A DNA stretch of 63,887 nt, counting the filler, from Dimargaris cristalligena (taxonomy: Eukaryota), in assembly GCA_003614675.1 (NCBI GenBank). It is 11 parts of 11 records of this genome, joined end to end, with 100 filler letters (N's around TTAATTAATTAA, not from the genome) between each part and the next. Parts side by side here need not be neighbours in the genome. Positions count along the whole stretch, not along the records: positions 53,577 to 59,372 come from ML003579.1; 10 more parts are not named here. One strand, 5' to 3'. How positions within the stretch are numbered: position 1 is the stretch's first letter; each line of letters opens with the position of its first letter. Below are positions 3,630 to 59,968 of this stretch, piece by piece. A program made the translations under genes and the position numbers. The notes under the pieces are model-generated. The model did not search any database. It was not told where the DNA came from and saw only the letters and a list, made by a program, of their open reading frames with translations.

Positions 3630-4758
3630 TCACAAATGAATAGTCTTTCCATTACATTTTCGCATATGTATCTTGAAAGAGTTGGCTGATGATAATGTCT
3701 TCCCGCAATTACCACATGTATAAGGGTTCTTCTCGGTGTGTAATCGTGTATATGTCTTGAGATAGCTAGCCGATAAAAATGCCTCTCCGCAATTATCACA
3801 TGTATAAGGATTATCCTCAAAATGTACTACCATGTGTTTCTTAAGATACGTAGGTAGTGAAAATGAGCCTCCGCAATGCACACAGGTATAGGGCTTCCCA
3901 TCGGTGTGAACATGCATGTGTCTCTTGAGATATCTAGTTGCCAAAAATGTCCTCCCACAAATTTCGCAGGCATATGGCTTCTCCCCAGTGTGTGATAGCA
4001 TATGCCTATTAAGATGACATTGCGTTGGAAATGGCTTTCCACAAACCTCGCAAGTGTGAGACTTCGCTTGTAAATGTGGTCCTAAATGAGATTCAAAACC
4101 TCTCTGGGCCGTGTGAGTTTGCAAAATGCCCATGGGTGTAAGGCATCTTATTGTTGTGCATTACCATGTCCTTGCCATTAAAAATGGAATCGGTAGGCCT
4201 GGGTAGTCCACGACAATGACTACTAGAATCCGATTCCAGTAATTGCCTTACCTGCCACCAGAGCGGACTGCCACCCAATGCCAACACACTTGCAACAGCA
4301 GGGTCCCAATCCATACCGGGTAGATTGTTGGCAAGCCTTGAGTCTAAAGGGACATTCTCCCCCTCGCTACCAGTGGCTACTATACCAAGTAGATCACCCT
4401 CTGAATAGGGATAAGAATCGGCTGGCGCAAGTTGATTGCCGACCTTATCTAAATCATGCCACTGTTCAGGACTTAGGTGCTCCAGGGTATCATTGCCACC
4501 CATGGTCTGTTCGAGTTGGTTAATAAATTGGCCTAGTCCATTGTTGTCTAATTGATTTATACAATGTAATATCTCCGATAAAGGCAGGTTATTGGCAGGG
4601 GGTCCTGGAATTGTGTTAGTGGCTACGCCATCAATGTTAAACTGGGGATCATGGGCATAGAGAATTGATTTTTTCTGTTCAGGTTCCGAATCATTTGCTT
4701 CAGAGGTACGGGCGAGGGAGAGCAAAGCCAGAAGTCCAGCGGTTTTGATTGCACTCAT
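3630..4758 (-). CDS. Signal-peptide protein joined to a C2H2 zinc-finger array (5 fingers, 4th degenerate); probable exons 4758-4165 and 4103-3630
   Basis: ORF 4093-4758 starts MSAIKTAGLLALLSLARTSEA. ORF 3630-4133 has CxxC...HxxxH fingers with HTGEKPY-type linkers. A 61-nt GTAATG...CTCAC...CCCAG intron (4164-4104) would join them in frame (355 aa); a frameshift is the alternative. Confidence 0.65.
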
Positions 4759-5165
4759 TCTAGGATAGCTGTATAAAAGTAGGCAGGTATAGCAAAGGAC
4801 AAGGGAGTGTCAGCTAAGACAAAAATGAGAATAGACCAGCACACAGCTTTAATTAGCAATGGAGTTACAAATTTGCTGGTTTGACTTTTTTTTTTGCTTT
4901 TATATTAAATAGTAAGGTGGATAATGAAACCTTGAAAATACTCAACAAAAAGTTCATAGGAGGAGATGGTAGCTGATTGTAGGGAGACTAACATTTATAA
5001 ATATGGTTTGTATGTGGATACAGATGAAACTCACCATATTGACATATAAAGGCTACTTCTAGGTGCCACATTGGTATACTGTGTACCATAAAGTACACCC
5101 CTGACTTAGTAATAGGGTGTATATACCAGCTACATTGTAGAACAAAGCTTAAGCAGTTGCATTTC

Positions 5166-5716
5166 TGTTGGAATATTAAGGACATAAAGAAAATAAAACT
5201 GGAAGTAAGGGAAAAAAGCAGCTAGAGGACAGTAGGTATCTCTAGGTGGTAAGTTTTATTGAACTGTAATTTTAATGGGGTGAAACATAAGTGGCTAACA
5301 TAAATAATCTCATGATAGTGCAACCAAGGGGAAATTCCAACCTGAATAATCAGGAGGATGGCCAACCCAATCATACCCTTCTTCAGGAGGATAACCCACT
5401 GATGTACATGGGGGTCCAATCTACCCCCCTAATGGAGGAGGACAACCCTCTCCCATTGACATAAGAACTACACCCTGCCCCAGAGGGATAAAACCAGCCA
5501 CCCACCCAGCAGACTAGGATTTTGTGTCTTTAAATAAAATACTATTATTCACTAATATACCTGCAGTTATTTTGCATTAACCCTGCTCCACTTGGCTCCA
5601 TTTTCCTCACCCTTCATCCTGCCCTACTTGGCACTAGGTTACAATAGCAGAATAAACTAACATAATTAGGTGAAATAGGATAGGATAAAGAACATGTAGG
5701 AACATATTCTTCAGCA
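5166..5716 (-). mobile_element. Solo LTR, family A, copy 2, interrupted by a family B solo LTR
   Basis: Reverse-complement match to 1229-1452 in two pieces (5166-5318, 5644-5716); TSD ATTTC at 5161-5165 and 5717-5721. Confidence 0.9.
5319..5643 (+). mobile_element. Solo LTR, family B (diverged relative of the Gypsy LTR at 53664)
   Basis: TGCAACC...GGTTACA ends. Shares the ...CCAGAGG(G/A)ATAAAACC and TGTGTCTTT(A/C)AATAAAATACT blocks with the full-length LTR. 4-bp TSD ATAG (5315-5318 and 5644-5647). Confidence 0.9.
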
Positions 5717-18402: not shown

Positions 18403-18625
18403 TGTTGAAGAATATGTTCCTACATGTTCTTTATCCTATCCTATTTTATCCAATTATGTTAGTTTATTCTACTATCATAAGATCATTTATATTAGCCACT
18501 TATATTTCACCCCATCAAAAATTACAGTTCAATAAAACTAACCACCTAGAGGCACCTACCATCCTCTAGCTGCTTTCTTCCCTTACTTCCAGTTTTATTT
18601 CCTTTTCATCCTTAGTATTCCAACA
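18403..18625 (+). mobile_element. Solo LTR, family A, copy 3
   Basis: TGTTGAAG...TCCAACA, colinear with 1229-1452; TSD GTATC (18398-18402 and 18626-18630). Confidence 0.9.
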
Positions 18626-21854: not shown

Positions 21855-22076
21855 TGTTGAAATACTAAGGATATAAAGAAAATAAAACTGGAAGTAAGGG
21901 AAGAAAGCAGCCAGAGGACAGTAGTTGCCTCTAGGTAGTTAGTTTTATTGAATTGTAATTTCAGTGGGGTAAAACATAAGTGACTAACATAAATGATCTC
22001 ATGATAGCAGAATAAAATAACATAATTAGGTAAAACAGAATAGGATAAAGAATATGTAGGAACATATTCTTTAATA
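21855..22076 (-). mobile_element. Family A LTR, copy 4, decayed end, no TSD
   Basis: Reverse-complement match to 1229-1452; terminal TCAACA changed to TTAATA. Confidence 0.85.
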
Positions 22077-22483
22077 AAAACAGTGTCTGCGGTGCTGTTA
22101 CACTCACATGCAGCAATATACAAGATCCAGTACCTTGACTGTGAAAGAATATTAGTGGGACAGTCACTGGCACAAGATGAAGAACATGGTCCATTTATGG
22201 CTGTTAGCTTTGATATGGGCAAATGATGCTGTCACTGCATAATCAAGTGTCCCTTTCCTGGGCCGGATTTTCTCTTCGAACATTAATCACCACCTTCACC
22301 CATTTTTATTTTGCATTTCACCTAAGAAATATAATCAGCTGAATCGCGCTTTACCCATATCAACATATAATAGGGGCACCCAACAGGTAGCTGCTTTAAT
22401 TAAGGAGTGGGAAATGGATTTTTACATTAGTCCTTGGAAGGGCTTATTAAATATATAAACATGACAAATATATACAGACAGCC

Positions 22484-53346: not shown

Positions 53347-53663
53347 ACGTATGTATGTGTACTGACATGGGTCGGGATGGATTATCCTCTCCACAAGACA
53401 AACTAGTCGCGACCTTCGTCATGTGATCCCTGCGCATCCTACAGTTACACCCTTGCAGGAGTATTCGGAAGACCTANNNNNNNNNNNNNNNNNNNNNNNN
53501 NNNNNNNNNNNNNNNNNNNNTTAATTAATTAANNNNNNNNNNNNNNNNNNNNNNNNNNNNNNNNNNNNNNNNNNNNGGGAAGGGAGTTCCCAGATAATAG
53601 TATTAGTCATCACAAAGGATAGGTAATACTCGGGTAACCGATAAATTCAATGTGAAACAATAG

Positions 53664-54009
53664 TGCAACCGGGGGAGGCCACCCCCACTCAAAGACAAGA
53701 GGTCGATCCTCCTCACAGTACCCCCCGACTAAGCGAGGAAGACCACATGAGTCATGACATGGATCATTCGACCCCCCCACAGGAAGAGAATGGCCTTCCC
53801 CTAACGGCACAAGAACAACACCTCATCCCAGAGGAATAAAACCCATTGCCTGAGCAGCCCACCATTATTCTGTGTCTTTCAATAAAATACTTATAATTAT
53901 ATTATGCCTACGAGCTCTATTTTACCTGTTTGGTTATTTATGCCCTACTCAGTGATTGTTAGTTATTTTATCATCTTATTTCCGGCCCCACTCGGCCTGC
54001 TCGGTTACA
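53664..54009 (+). repeat. 5' LTR
   Basis: Direct repeat of 58949-59294; AATAAA at 53835 and 53881. Confidence 0.97.
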
Positions 54010-54013
54010 AACT

Positions 54014-54027
54014 TTTTATTGAAAGAC
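54014..54027 (+). promoter_or_regulatory. Putative self-priming primer-binding site
   Basis: TTTTATTGAAAGAC is the exact reverse complement of LTR 53874-53887 (GTCTTTCAATAAAA). No TGG tRNA-type PBS follows the LTR. Confidence 0.7.
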
Positions 54028-54031
54028 CTAA

Positions 54032-54886
54032 ATGTCTACCCAACAACACCTAAGCAGCCCCCCTCAGGCCATCCAGCATGGGCTACCATCAGGTGCCCTA
54101 GACACCCTCCTCAAGAACGTCAAACCCTTTACAGGAAAACCACCGGGTCCCACTTGGGAATCATGGACGACTTCCCTCACAGCCACCATTGAGGACTACT
54201 ACCCTCAGATGAGCACTGGAGCCCGGTTCCGACTGAAGATTGCACTCCTTCAGGATGATATACGTGACCTCATCATCAAGTCCGGTAAGGACACCACAGA
54301 ACACTTCGAGCCATTCATGACAACCACCTACCTGACTTCTCTGTGGGCAGATTACTACGACACTGCGCTACACTCGGGGACCCTCTTTAAGGGCAAGAAC
54401 ATTCATGTCGCCTGTTCCATTGCTTCGGATGCCGCCTGGCAACTGGGGGGCACCAGCCACTGGTGTACCCAGGTTACAAAGGCACTGCTGGCCGAGTTCC
54501 ACATGGACCTAGAACAAGCCCCCCACGAACTCTGGAACTTTATGGAGTATACTGCAGGGGAGATGGATGAGCACTTCAAATCTATTACCCAAGCAGTTTT
54601 GGCTAGCCAAGCCCGTCAGGCCGCCTTACGTACTGCACCAGGCCAAGGCCCACTAGGCCAAGAAAGTCGAGGGCAGCCAGCTAGTGGCACTAGGGACACC
54701 GGACCTACAACCATAGAATCAATCGTGGCCGCAGTTCTCGCCACCATGAAAGAAGAAACTCCCAACCCCAGTAATCGTGGTAAAGCACGTCGCCGAAAGG
54801 ATCGTCAGGCCAAGATTATGGCAGATCTTCAGGCCGAGGTCAAGCACCTACACCAGCAAGTCAATGATAAGCCGGGAAAAGCATAG
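54032..54886 (+). CDS. gag: Retrotransposon Gag-like protein (284 aa)
   Basis: First ORF after the 5' LTR; VKPFTG...WESW capsid-like start; basic C-terminal patch; no CCHC knuckle seen. Confidence 0.8.
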   Translation: MSTQQHLSSPPQAIQHGLPSGALDTLLKNVKPFTGKPPGPTWESWTTSLTATIEDYYPQMSTGARFRLKIALLQDDIRDLIIKSGKDTTEHFEPFMTTTYLTSLWADYYDTALHSGTLFKGKNIHVACSIASDAAWQLGGTSHWCTQVTKALLAEFHMDLEQAPHELWNFMEYTAGEMDEHFKSITQAVLASQARQAALRTAPGQGPLGQESRGQPASGTRDTGPTTIESIVAAVLATMKEETPNPSNRGKARRRKDRQAKIMADLQAEVKHLHQQVNDKPGKA

Positions 54887-57800
54887 AGGTGGTGAGGGAT
54901 CCCTCTGTACTAGCCGCAATTGTCACTAATAAAACTAGTACTCATACCCTTACCACCAAAGACACACAATCTCATTGGAGACTACTACGGGATGCCACCC
55001 TGGGTGGAGTTCAACTCAAAGCAGCAGCAGATCAAGGCGCAGCAACTAGTGTGATCACCCGAGAGGCAGCCAGCCGCCTACACCTTAAGATCGATCAGCG
55101 GCTAAGACCCCACCTACGAGCCTTCGGGGGACATAGTTATGCCCCAACCCTAGGGACCACCCGGGCCCGATTTGCAACAACTGAATCCCCTAAGAAACGA
55201 TGGATTAGATTCACCGTAATTGAAGCCCACACTGATATTGATGCCCTAATCGGCCGTCATGACCTAGATTCCTTGGACCTCGACCTTATCACCTCATGGG
55301 GTCAGGCAGTTACCCGACAAGCCTCCCCTCTGTCAGCCCCACTAGAAACACCTCAAGTTACCCAAAGGGAAACCCTGGAGCTGAGAGGACTCCCATCTGA
55401 CACCTTTCAGCGGATTGACCCAGCATCCGACCGGGAATTCCAAGCGGCAAATAACCAGTACCCATTACCCACTCGTCAGAGCATTCAATCCCGAGTAGTG
55501 GAGCAACTGGAAGACCAACAAACCAAAACTCAACTACTTGATGAGCTTATGACAGGGCTCCTGGCACTTCGGGAATACCCACCAAGTTGCCCACCACCTT
55601 GCCTACTCACCCCAATATCCCCACCCCTAAGGCATAATGCAAAACTCCTTTTTATCCCACAGGCCCCCCGGAGTCGGGCAGACCGGGAGTTCATGGACAA
55701 GTATATCAAAACCCGTCTCCAGTATGGGGTAGATGAGCCCGGATTTGCCCACGCCAATCTACCTGTGTACAGCCTACCAAAGCCAAATACTGATGCTCGA
55801 CTGGTCATTCTAGATGATAGCTAAGGGAGTACTATCAATATGCACTCCCTCGGAATGCAACTCCCTAGGCTCCATGAGGTACGGGGATTTGTCAATGATG
55901 CTAAGATCATCACCAGCGTTGATCTAGCCTCCTACTTCACACAAATTAGGTTAGCTCCCGAAGTCCGAGATTTCTGGACCTTTGAGGGTGGATCCAATGG
56001 TCGAGTACGTGCAGCACGGCTAGTCCAAGGCAACAGTCAGAGCCCAGCTATTGTGCATGCCCTTCTACTACATGTATTCAATGATATCCCTAGTCTCCGG
56101 GGTCGCCTCTTAGGGTATATCGATAATATATACTTAAAAAGTACTAGTGGTGATGTCCAAAGTCATATTCATGATATTGGTGCACTCATCCGGGGACTTG
56201 CCTCTTGGGGCCTCACTGTAAACCTATCTAAAAGTGAGTTTGCTGGTACCAGAAATGTAGAGATTCTGGGCTATCGTTGGTCACAGAAAAATACCTGGAC
56301 AATTCCAGATCACCGGATTGCAGACCTCCAACAGCTACCTATGCTTAGGACTGTCAAGGACATCCAGCGACTAACTGGTGGTGTCAATGCCATCTCAGCA
56401 CACCTCCCATGGGCAGCTGCACTATTAGCCCCATTTTATGCCCTCACTGGGCTTCGTCGTTTAAACAACACCCATCTGGTGGACCTCAAACCACATTGGG
56501 ATGATCTCAAGGAAGCCCTCCTAGATACGAAGCACCTGTATGAACCACGGCTGGGTGAACCTCTTACACTATGGGTAGATGCTGCTGAGGCAGGAGTAGG
56601 AGCAGTGCTACTTGCCCATCCTAAGGATCAGGGAGACAGGGTAGTCGCATACTTTAGCAAGGCCTTTGATGGACAACAAGGCCAGCGGCATCCCGGGTTC
56701 CGTGAAGCCTGGGGACTAGTGAGGGCAGCTCGGCATTTTTATACATATCTGGATGGTACCATTAACCTCCGGATTGAAGTCGATGCTACTACAGCACTGG
56801 GTATTTTCAACCACAAAGATACATGCCAGGCTGATGAATTAGCAGGCTTCCGTGCTGAACTCGCAAAGCTAGGAATTCATTCCAACATGATATACCATCG
56901 TCCTGGTGAGACTCACCTCACTGCTGACTGGCTATCCCAGGCCCTTCATCGCCAGAGACTATGCAAGCCTACCAAACGTACAGTAGCCACATTAGCAGCC
57001 ATGGAACTTGCCAGCAATGATCCAACCAGTAGCAGTGACGGGGGAGAGGCAGTACACATCTCTCTTACCTCCGATGATGAAGATGATGATGATCCAGAAT
57101 CAGGTACCACCCAACACCTGGGTGAGTCTACAATCATAGCATCCCTGCCCAACACCTGGCACTGGTCAATAACCCCAGAGGACCAAAAAGGCGACACCCA
57201 ACTTGCAAATTGGCACCAGCTCTGCCAGCGACGTGATGTGGAGATTGGTAATGACGATCCATTATTCACCGAGGTTAATGGGATGTCTATTCACAACGGA
57301 CTCCTCTGTCAAATAACCCCAGGTGTATTGGCCGGTACAATGGGGAGTTGGGTCCCCTTAATTCCAACGGCTATGCTGAAGGACACAATCATAAACTGGC
57401 ATAAAGAGCTTTGCCATCCTGGCCAGGAACGGCTACTAGCTTTTGCCCAAACCCGCCTTGCTCACTCGGCCCTGCGAGAGACCATCGATCGGTGTACTAG
57501 GACCTGTCACACTTGTCAGATAAATGCAATAGCCACCATTCGGAACACCCCGCGGTCAACTACATATGGCAACCGAAAACCAGGTGAGCACCTTTACCTT
57601 GATCTTGGTTACATCGGTCAAGTAGGGTCTGATGAGGAGACCCAATTTCTCATTATTGCCGATGCCACTAGCCGGTTTTACCAAGCCATACCACTGGTAC
57701 AATCAACAGCTGCAGATATCATAGAAGGCCTACGTGATGGCTGGATCGGGACCTATGGGAAACTACGTATGATCACTACTGACAATGGCCCACAATTCAC

Positions 57801-59124
57801 TGCCGAAACTCTTCAAACCTATCTTGAGGGCCAAGGGATCCGGCATATATTCTCCTCCCGTAGTCACCCTATCTCAGAATTGGCTGAGCGATATGTCGGG
57901 CTACTAAAGAACTCCCTCCGGAAGTGTTGGAGCCAACATGGTACTGATGACAGCTGGATTCAGTATCTTCCCAGAATCACAGCAGCACACGCAATTATCC
58001 CAGACCCACATACAGGTATCTCACCATGGATGGCCCTCAAAGGCATCGAATCAACCGTAAATACATCCCAACTGGTACTCCACCCGGATACTGATCAGGG
58101 AGTAGAGGGAGTTGCACAATGGGCTATAAACCAAGCCAAGGAACGACGGTCACGAATGCGAAAACTAGCCATGGAAAGGCATAACCAGCATGTTACCCGG
58201 AGGTGTTACATCACCGGAGAACTAGTCACCATTAAGGTGATACCAAAGCCGGCTAACCTGGCCAGTCGACCAGAGCGCAGGATGGGCCCATTCCGAGTCT
58301 TGGAGAGAGCCGGTCTGTCCTACTGATTAGCTAACCTCGATGGAAGTCCCCGGCCCCGAAACGTTCATGGTGACCTCCTCCTCCCATATTACATTAATGA
58401 TGATGAACATGATACTCATTTAGAGGAGACGGTGGCTAATTCAATTGAGCCAATACTGATATCTATACCTAATATCCAAGGAGAAGTTCAGAGTCAAGCC
58501 ACGGGGAATGAAGAAGGCCAAGTACAAACCAGGGCGGACACAAGCGGCGAAGATCAGGACCAGGAGACTACTGGATTAAACACCTCGCCTATAGGTGCAC
58601 AACTCCCGGTAGATAACTCACAGGAGGATTATGATAGTGACTATGGTAGCGATTATGACGACTCTGAAGATGAGGAGGACCAGGAATTAACATCCGAGTC
58701 GGACTCGGGAATACTATCAGATGCTCAACCAGAATGGCCACCACTACACATATATAGCCATGGCACCAAGAGACAAGCTTCTCGGTCACCCCCGCAGGCC
58801 AAAGCATCCCGAACAGACCATAAAAGGCTACGCGAACCATCTAGCCCCACTCTGCGAGCATTCCCCCACCTCCGGGAGAAACTAGACTGGGACACCCGAG
58901 AAACGGATGCCACAAACTCCGAGGACGAGCAGTTGCCCTGGAGTATTGTGCAACCGGGGGAGGCCACCCCCACTCAAAGACAAGAGGTTGATCCTCCTCA
59001 CAGTACCCCCCGACTAAGCGAGGAAGACCACATGAGTCATGACATGGATCATTCGACCCCCCCACAGGAAGAGAATGGCCTTCCCCTAATGGCACAAGAA
59101 CAACACCTCATCCCAGAGGAATAA
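54874..59124 (+). pseudogene. pol: pol (protease-RT-RNase H-integrase-acidic tail): one frame broken by TAA 55822-55824 and TGA 58324-58326
   Basis: ORFs 54889, 55840 and 58432 share a frame. Motifs: ADQGA...LIG (PR), VDLASYFTQ/QG/YIDN (RT), VDAAEAGVGAVL...ADWLS (RH), H-H-C-C, D-D(TDNGPQF)-E and GPF (IN). Confidence 0.92.
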
Positions 59125-59294
59125 AACCCATTGCCTGAGCAGCCCACCATTATTCTGTGTCTTTCAATAAAATACTTATAATTATATTATGCCTATGAGC
59201 TCTATTTTACCTGTTTGGTTATTTACGCCCTACTCGGTGATTGTTAGTTATTTTATCATCTTATTTCCGGCCCCACTCGGCCTGCTCGGTTACA
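58949..59294 (+). repeat. 3' LTR (first 176 nt overlap the pol frame)
   Basis: Direct repeat of 53664-54009. Confidence 0.97.
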
Positions 59295-59968
59295 ATAGAA
59301 GGGATAAAAAGAAAGGGAGAAAGCTATTGTTAGCTATTCTTTGAACAGGGGTGCAGTCGGGCCAGGGGCAGTNNNNNNNNNNNNNNNNNNNNNNNNNNNN
59401 NNNNNNNNNNNNNNNNTTAATTAATTAANNNNNNNNNNNNNNNNNNNNNNNNNNNNNNNNNNNNNNNNNNNNGTGTGGACTGCTTTCTCGATTGGTAGAA
59501 CTTGTCTTAATAAAATGTCTTTTCGCTTTACAGCTGGGCCGAGTTTCACACACATGATTTTTATTTATAAGGTCGTTTTCTTGCTATACAAGCCAGTAGA
59601 GCCTCCTCAACCTTTGGCTTTTAATTTGTAATCTCATTTCTCGATTATCACCCGTCGTTCCACCTAAAGCAGGACTTTGTGTATGCAATGTCCGTAATTC
59701 CGAAACATGCTCACTATCTATTGCAGAAACGGCTCGGAAACACCCTATTAACTACAATATTAAAAATAATTTACTAATACGCCAAGTACGCCCATCAAAT
59801 GACGGTAAGATATTGCTAGCAACGAAAATCACATAGACCATAATGCTGGTATTGTTGGCACTATCACCCCAAATATAGCCACCGGAATTAATATATATAT
59901 ACATATATATATATAGCTAAAAATAACACCGTCAGTTGGGATGAAGCAGTCCTAACTAAAGTGGTGAC

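Follow-up and report, generated by a model that had tools for sequence, protein, structure and literature searches.

Predicted Tf1-like self-priming in a deep-branching, apparently undescribed Gypsy clade represented in Dimargaris cristalligena

We propose, with high confidence, that a deep-branching clade of Gypsy retrotransposons primes reverse transcription as Tf1 does, with the 5' end of its own RNA in place of a tRNA. The window, i.e., the whole stretch of DNA that was analysed (63,887 nucleotides of Dimargaris cristalligena, assembly GCA_003614675.1), is a chain of 11 short contigs with N linkers between them. One of these contigs, 53577-59372 (ML003579.1; our label G000:C1372), holds one whole LTR element (Table 1). 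The original prediction described a perfect 14-bp pairing of a block of the LTR with the primer binding site (PBS); we find that 53874-53887 and 54014-54027 are indeed exact reverse complements over 14 bp. The accompanying details also hold. There is no TGG near the LTR end, AACT separates that end from the duplex, the AATAAA at 53881-53886 lies within the primer arm, and the AATAAAA of GAATAAAA, the TATA-like box placed about 40 nt upstream, starts 39 nt before 53874.

From this arrangement we infer a start site, a cleavage, a priming step, primer copying and poly(A) masking, as follows. Transcription would start at or next to 53874, and the first 14 nt of the RNA would fold back and pair with the PBS, closing a loop of ~126 nt that holds R, U5 and the 4-nt spacer. 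Cleavage behind nt 14 (RNase H is the probable agent, as in Tf1) would release a 3' end from which minus-strand DNA is primed, first across the spacer and then into U5. The retained primer would later be copied into a new PBS during plus-strand synthesis, so that the two arms stay exactly complementary. With a 4-nt spacer, the end of the cDNA would need a 4-nt trim, by integrase. The same helix may hide the 5' copy of the AATAAA. In Tf1, the primer is reported as 11 nt and cut by RNase H (PMC7175516), and the cDNA is reported to carry the copied PBS at its 3' end (PMC11042837). The Tf1-like geometry that had been claimed is borne out, since the primer 3' end points into U5 and the orientation of primer and PBS is that described for Tf1 and Tf2 (PMC7175516, PMC5341516).

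Table 1. Features of the window element and of a related solo LTR (window coordinates)
Feature	Position	Strand	Remark
Left target-site duplication (TSD), ATAG	53660..53663	+	right copy 59295-59298
5' LTR, 346 bp, TG...CA (TGCAACC...GGTTACA)	53664..54009	+	
TATA-like box GAATAAAA	53834..53841	+	~39-40 nt 5' of the predicted start; putative function
Predicted self-primer GTCTTTCAATAAAA, the first 14 nt of the RNA and start of R	53874..53887	+	start site predicted
AATAAA inside the predicted primer	53881-53886	+	
First small R/U5 hairpin, 6-nt loop CTACTC	53942..53953	+	weakened in the window LTR copy
Second U5 hairpin, GGCC-CCACTC-GGCC	53984..53997	+	12 nt before the LTR end; conserved, some covariation
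Spacer from LTR end to PBS, 4 nt	54010..54013	+	AACT here
Predicted PBS TTTTATTGAAAGAC	54014..54027	+	exact complement of 53874-53887
gag-like ORF, 284 aa	54032..54886	+	
Slippery heptamer G GGA AAA at the gag/pol overlap	54874..54880	+	sequence seen; putative -1 frameshift
pol frame with PR-RT-RH-IN in Gypsy order, YIDN at the RT site, and an acidic tail reaching into U3 of the 3' LTR	54871..59124	+	
Expected polypurine-tract position, CCCTGGAGTATTG there	58930..58948	+	CCCTGGAGTATTG kept in 6/6 close families
3' LTR	58949..59294	+	differs from the 5' LTR at 5 positions
Solo LTR of a sister family, on another contig	5319..5643	+	TSD ATAG; primer block 5526-5539

The window element has the Gypsy hallmarks, namely TG...CA LTRs, a TSD and, by Pfam, the PR-RT-RH-IN order. 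The best PDB match is Ty3 Gag-Pol (E 1e-28). The closest named protein (96%) is labelled D. cristalligena, an early-diverging zoopagomycete fungus, and the next ones are from Coemansia (44-48%) and D. verticillata. The gag-like ORF at 54032..54886 matches no Pfam family and no CCHC motif was found in it. The G GGA AAA at 54874..54880 is what we take, from its general pattern, to be the slippery heptamer. In this copy the pol frame is broken by stops at 55822-55824 and 58324-58326. The part of pol from 58327 to 59124 is an acidic low-complexity tail that runs through U3 and ends at the TATA-like box, as it does in the related family C45, so that in both elements roughly half of the 3' LTR is coding. 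In the 3' LTR, the TAA of the box also terminates pol (59122-59124), and this role could explain part of the conservation of the box. All five differences between 53664-54009 and 58949-59294 are transitions at CpG, a pattern that suggests methylation-linked decay of repeats.

Relatives were gathered from this genome by LTR, protein and pattern searches, which gave seven junctions between LTR and internal sequence at the 5' end (the window element, C45, C1110, C1391, C251, C504 and C1419). An exact 14-bp duplex placed 4 nt behind the LTR is present in all seven, though the seven families carry six different primer sequences; the spacer is AACT in six of them and AAAT in one. In the alignment of the seven families (A5), 6 of the 14 pairs change on both sides and 8 never vary. 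These families are related, and the counts of covariation are not counts of independent events. Every one of the 98 duplex cells is Watson-Crick, with zero G-U pairs and zero one-sided changes. The two nearby U5 hairpins in the same alignment tolerate G-U pairs and mismatches, and the long helix does not. An exact helix free of G-U pairs beside tolerant hairpins is the pattern to be expected if the primer is copied into the PBS. The helix also ends sharply on both sides in the seven families and in a distant relative, L121 (8/8 elements), and in the seven families no Watson-Crick pair could extend it at either end.

The solo LTR on another contig, ~70% identical to the element LTR over the aligned part, had been noted for its conserved block, and it does keep 13/14 primer bases at 5526-5539. 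The one differing base has its counterpart in full-length kin, C504 (L039), where the PBS carries the matching change. The compensatory changes between PBS and R that the original prediction asked for are thus present, with complementarity kept in 7/7 families and in the 1/1 distant relative.

Folding agrees with this picture. When the RNA is folded from 53874, the pairs of the helix have probabilities of 0.74-1.0, and RNAalifold recovers only the same helix and, within the predicted RNA, two small hairpins. In percent paired and in covariation score, the complete 21-pair structure exceeds 500/500 shuffles. The AGTT in U5 can pair with the AACT spacer over 4 bp only. Because the folding energy of the whole region is unremarkable (z -1.68), the case is built on position and covariation.

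Position and covariation also settle whether the duplex could be a chance A/T-rich inverted repeat. Though the block is A/T-rich and the pairing has a window-wide BLAST E-value of 0.26 when taken alone, a complement reaching 14 nt at this position arose in 0/5000 block shuffles of the window LTR (maximum 12) and, likewise, in 0/5000 for each of the six elements tested. In addition, the duplex is kept in 8/8 elements with compensatory changes, and controls in which the arms are slid pair at 35-52% against 98%. Chance is therefore ruled out for practical purposes.

A host primer would be the conventional alternative. The tRNA set used for comparison comprises 53 distinct tRNAs from 50 loci (63 of 1145 first-look candidates were scored) and holds no Asp or Trp tRNA. 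Against this incomplete set, the longest complement of any PBS region was 6-9 nt anywhere in a tRNA and 1 nt at any tRNA 3' end, and the window PBS gave a match of at most 7 nt. No tRNA among the 53 thus matches the PBS by its 3' end. Alternatively, half of a tRNA or some other small RNA of the host could happen to resemble the LTR block and serve as primer; half-tRNA primers are described for Copia lineages (PMC6317226), and the incompleteness of the tRNA set leaves such a reading some room. However, seven families in one genome have six PBS sequences and each PBS tracks its own LTR, so a fixed host primer cannot explain them, and Rfam gave no match in 53577-54300 at E<=1. We consider this reading very improbable and, judging from the covariation, largely refuted. 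With neither a match among the 53 host tRNAs nor a loss of complementarity found, the Tf1-like self-priming reading is supported.

The placement of the predicted RNA start is regular. In 7/7 families a T precedes the helix, the helix begins with G or A, and 39-40 nt upstream there is an A/T box, which reads TATAAAA in C1419. With L121 included, a pyrimidine precedes the helix, a purine is the first base and a TATA-like box lies 36-40 nt upstream in 8/8 elements. Transcription starts commonly obey a pyrimidine/purine initiator rule. A small G/C-rich inverted repeat is found between the TATA-like box and the start at 53845-53853, with equivalents in most families; it would fall just 5' of the poly(A) signal at the 3' end of the RNA. 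We also considered the upstream GAATAAAA as the poly(A) signal and rejected it, as its AATAAA is not conserved and the AATAAA of the primer is.

The AATAAA lies within the 5' arm in 7/7 families and overlaps the end of the arm in L121. In HIV-1, a poly(A) hairpin masks the poly(A) signal of the 5' LTR. Since 8/8 elements have the AATAAA within the primer or at its end, the helix here may, as a second role, mask the 5' poly(A) signal and leave the 3' copy free. One could go further and hold that the helix mainly masks this signal or controls gag translation, with priming left to something else. The position of the gag ATG would fit, being 4-15 nt behind the helix in six of the seven families, further away in C1419 and inside the helix in L121. 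However, nothing requires a masking stem to keep a fixed 4-nt distance from the LTR end, to measure exactly 14 bp or to avoid G-U pairs, and the perfect helix of L121 spans only 4/6 of the AATAAA bases. In addition, the 53 tRNAs of the incomplete set offered no other primer. We regard masking or translational control as the main function as improbable, and favor self-priming with masking as a possible addition.

The helices that flank the primer helix in the Tf1 pretzel, and that Tf1 needs, were sought in 8/8 elements, and the best candidates were 3-8 bp, no better than in shuffles. This counts against the Tf1-like reading, as does the 4-nt spacer. The PBS is followed by CT in 8/8 elements. 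Reverse transcriptase (RT) can copy an RNA cap, and a C after the PBS is what cap copying or cap pairing would give. The T that follows is just as conserved, so we treat the C as no more than a lead.

A profile search found further RTs with YIDN or YVDN, and these distant proteins come from JGI metagenome contigs. A scan of 596 metagenome stretches yielded at least one relative locus as a whole element, L121, which is the only distant relative whose PBS was tested. In a scan of viral contigs with alignment A3, none of the 24 pattern hits was a relative. The LTRs of L121 lie at ~39-221 and 4848-5028, no matching TSD was seen in its flanks, and its pol ends before the LTR. The PBS of L121, at 224-235, pairs perfectly over 12 bp with LTR positions 163-174 and sits 2 nt behind the LTR; a TATAAAG lies 36 nt upstream, the predicted start is C/A, and the AATAAA occupies primer positions 9-14. 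The primer letters are unrelated to those of the Dimargaris primers, though the layout is alike, and the two subgroups share only ~32% identity in RT. A published criterion for self-priming asks for a complement of at least 10 bp that starts 0-5 bp after the LTR (PMC6317226). Here the complement is 14 bp at 4 nt in 7/7 families and 12 bp at 2 nt in L121.

The RT of the clade is unusual at its active site. YXDD is absent, YIDN is invariant in 8/8 rows of alignment A2, and Y-D-N is invariant in 10/10 rows of alignment A3; the remaining catalytic residues seem intact. Across the clade, Asn thus replaces the third catalytic aspartate. In Ty1, the same change is reported to keep slow in vitro activity, to abolish transposition and to make polymerisation ~223-fold slower (PMC2148107). 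In this genome some copies have LTRs that are 99-100% identical and open frames 1413-1450 aa long, and such young copies show that the YxDN enzyme is functional in vivo. Our literature search found no paper on Gypsy elements with a YIDN or YVDN RT, and an ESM Atlas search gave generic RT/RNase H clusters only. We rejected the idea that YxDN is unique to the clade, as it is known in nematode Bel/Pao elements and occurs in the unrelated rows P0184 and P0186. These two are Gypsy-like proteins with YVDN, one of them with a chromodomain, that do not group with the clade.

The clade also appears to have no clear polypurine tract, and a short or degenerate one is possible. In 8/8 elements the purine runs in the last 20 nt before the 3' LTR reach 4-5 nt at most, and in the window element 58930..58948 contains no purine run longer than 4 nt.

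To place the clade, we built an RT-RH tree of 67 rows, after removal of 39 of 106 rows (partial or redundant proteins and multi-copy chimeras); it contains no Tf1, no named Tf1/sushi reference and no Bel/Pao reference. The ten clade rows, eight of which show YxDN (P0035 has HIDN), form a 100/100 group. They lie outside a 100/100 group of 11 rows, which we read as the chromovirus core from its plant and Penicillium labels and its chromodomain hits. The stem of the clade is long (0.65) and the tree backbone is unresolved. RT-RH identity to all outside Gypsy hits, chromoviruses included, is 22-30%. The claimed absence of a chromodomain holds, since Pfam finds none in the window ORFs. PF00385 was also absent at E<=0.05 from 5/5 long Pol proteins of the clade, in a scan that did score P0141, and from the long Pol frames of two relatives (E<=0.05; one of the two frames is cut short by the end of its contig). 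As for Bel/Pao, there is no Peptidase_A17 hit and the Gypsy-type RT/RH models match.

The clade could nevertheless be a fast-evolving Tf1/sushi chromovirus that has lost the chromodomain and the pretzel and has inherited self-priming, with no separate origin. This question does not compete with the self-priming mechanism itself. The fungal host, self-priming and the -1 gag/pol frameshift, given as typical of Tf1/sushi elements outside fission yeast (10.1101/2022.12.06.519325), would all fit. A branch as long as 0.65 can be misplaced, five chromodomain-bearing proteins also fall outside the core, and Tf1 itself is absent from the tree. In AU tests on 30 rows with no named Tf1/sushi element (fast searches, LG+G4; 5000 replicates, flagged by the program as few), a position as sister to the chromovirus core is only weakly rejected (AU 0.04, SH 0.06). 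However, nesting among the fungal-type chromoviruses is rejected in the same tests (AU 0.008, SH 0.01), and the core is recovered at 100/100 without the clade. The low RT-RH identity to every outside hit and the lack of a chromodomain in 5/5 long Pol proteins argue in the same direction. So does the 4-bp TSD, against 5 bp in the fission-yeast elements, though TSD length is a weak classifier. Membership of Tf1/sushi is a serious alternative but a rather unlikely one, and we favor a clade that works like Tf1 and is probably not a Tf1/sushi member.

The 4-bp TSDs were seen in the window element, C45, C251 and in 9 of the 22 listed LTR rows, those classed as solo LTRs with matching flanks. They are ATAG, CTAG, ATAT, GAAA, AGAT, GAAT, CCAT, ATAC, CGAT and CTAT, nearly all with A at the third position and mostly with T at the second, and this bias reads as a target-site preference.

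The clade appears to be an undescribed deep Gypsy lineage. Our literature search, which covered sources other than subscription journals, Repbase, GyDB and bioRxiv supplements, found no paper describing it. Tentatively, and with somewhat less than even confidence in the whole, we put forward a fuller reading in which this clade (Dimargaris, Coemansia and eukaryotes known from metagenomes) would have self-priming independent of Tf1/sushi, by one helix without a pretzel. The primer would double as a poly(A) mask and be copied back into the PBS, possibly with the cap, and the elements would use a YxDN RT and no canonical polypurine tract.

Other parts of the window and the genome gave several observations of their own. 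The contig at 12056-17907 carries bacterial-type genes in intronless frames (a chemotaxis receptor, a Gram-negative porin and GGDEF) and is probably assembly contamination. An intronless GH35 beta-galactosidase lies on a GC-rich contig at 59969-62719, and a C2H2 zinc-finger array with 84-nt repeats at 3630-4160. Another dispersed repeat, with inverted ends, is found at 1229-1452, 5166-5318, 5644-5711, 18403-18625 and 21855-22081, and the solo LTR at 5319-5643 sits inside one of its copies. A different LTR-like repeat (TG...CA, ~318 bp) adjoins a solo LTR of the family described above, on the minus strand of L002 (369-686). The same genome also has a second very long-branched Gypsy family (L043 and L044; G000:C1325 and C1390), with FVDD and frames of 1851-1918 aa.

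Among known systems, the closest in layout are Tf1/Tf2 of Schizosaccharomyces pombe, Tj1, Tosmo1-3 and Tcry1. In these, as here, the PBS complements a stretch of the LTR that takes the position of the RNA 5' end, there is no tRNA site, the primer 3' end points into U5 and the domain order is that of Gypsy. Self-priming is described as a common feature of Tf1/sushi chromoviruses, with Tf1 needing a pretzel of three duplexes (10.1101/2022.12.06.519325). The same work gives a 5-bp TSD for Tosmo, and the -1 frameshift of other Tf1/sushi elements has a predicted counterpart here. The differences from Tf1 are several. The predicted primer is 14 nt (12 in L121) whereas that of Tf1 is 11 nt, and the spacer is 4 nt (2 in L121) whereas the PBS of Tf1 would lie directly at the LTR end, as we read PMC11042837. 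Unlike the Tf1 group, the clade shows no pretzel helices, no chromodomain and no clear polypurine tract, has its AATAAA in the primer, a 4-bp TSD, a YxDN RT and, in the window element and C45, a pol that runs into U3, and in our tree falls outside the chromovirus core by RT-RH. Self-priming has likewise been predicted from sequence for the clade of MAGGY, skippy, sushi and Tcn1 (PMC6317226); those are chromoviruses, whereas the RT-RH and the chromodomain-free Pol described above set the present clade apart.

In Gypsy elements, self-priming is treated as a hallmark of Tf1/sushi in PMC6317226 and 10.1101/2022.12.06.519325. If our placement is true, a self-primed clade outside Tf1/sushi would mean a second origin or an older one. 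A separate origin has precedent, since the plant Ty1/copia TAR lineage (Houba, Osr-1) is predicted to be self-primed outside Tf1/sushi (PMC6317226), though that lineage has the Copia domain order and plant hosts whereas the domain order here is the Gypsy PR-RT-RH-IN. The family is in effect a natural series of compensatory mutations, with six primers in one genome that are always exactly matched, and supports the mechanism from sequence in an unusually direct way.

At the active site, the nearest parallel is with the nematode Bel/Pao elements Cer7-12 and Atlas virus, for which a natural YVDN in place of YXDD is reported (PMC554778, PMC9094657). Those belong to another superfamily, and because the search here gave no hit to a Pao-type peptidase and the domains fit Gypsy-type models, the shared YxDN is probably convergent. 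The clade could be used to ask how an RT copes once the third aspartate is gone, and how priming of both DNA strands is achieved with neither a tRNA nor a clear purine tract. The mechanism itself is already known from Tf1; what appears to be new is a deep Gypsy clade, apparently undescribed, that departs from Tf1 in several ways.
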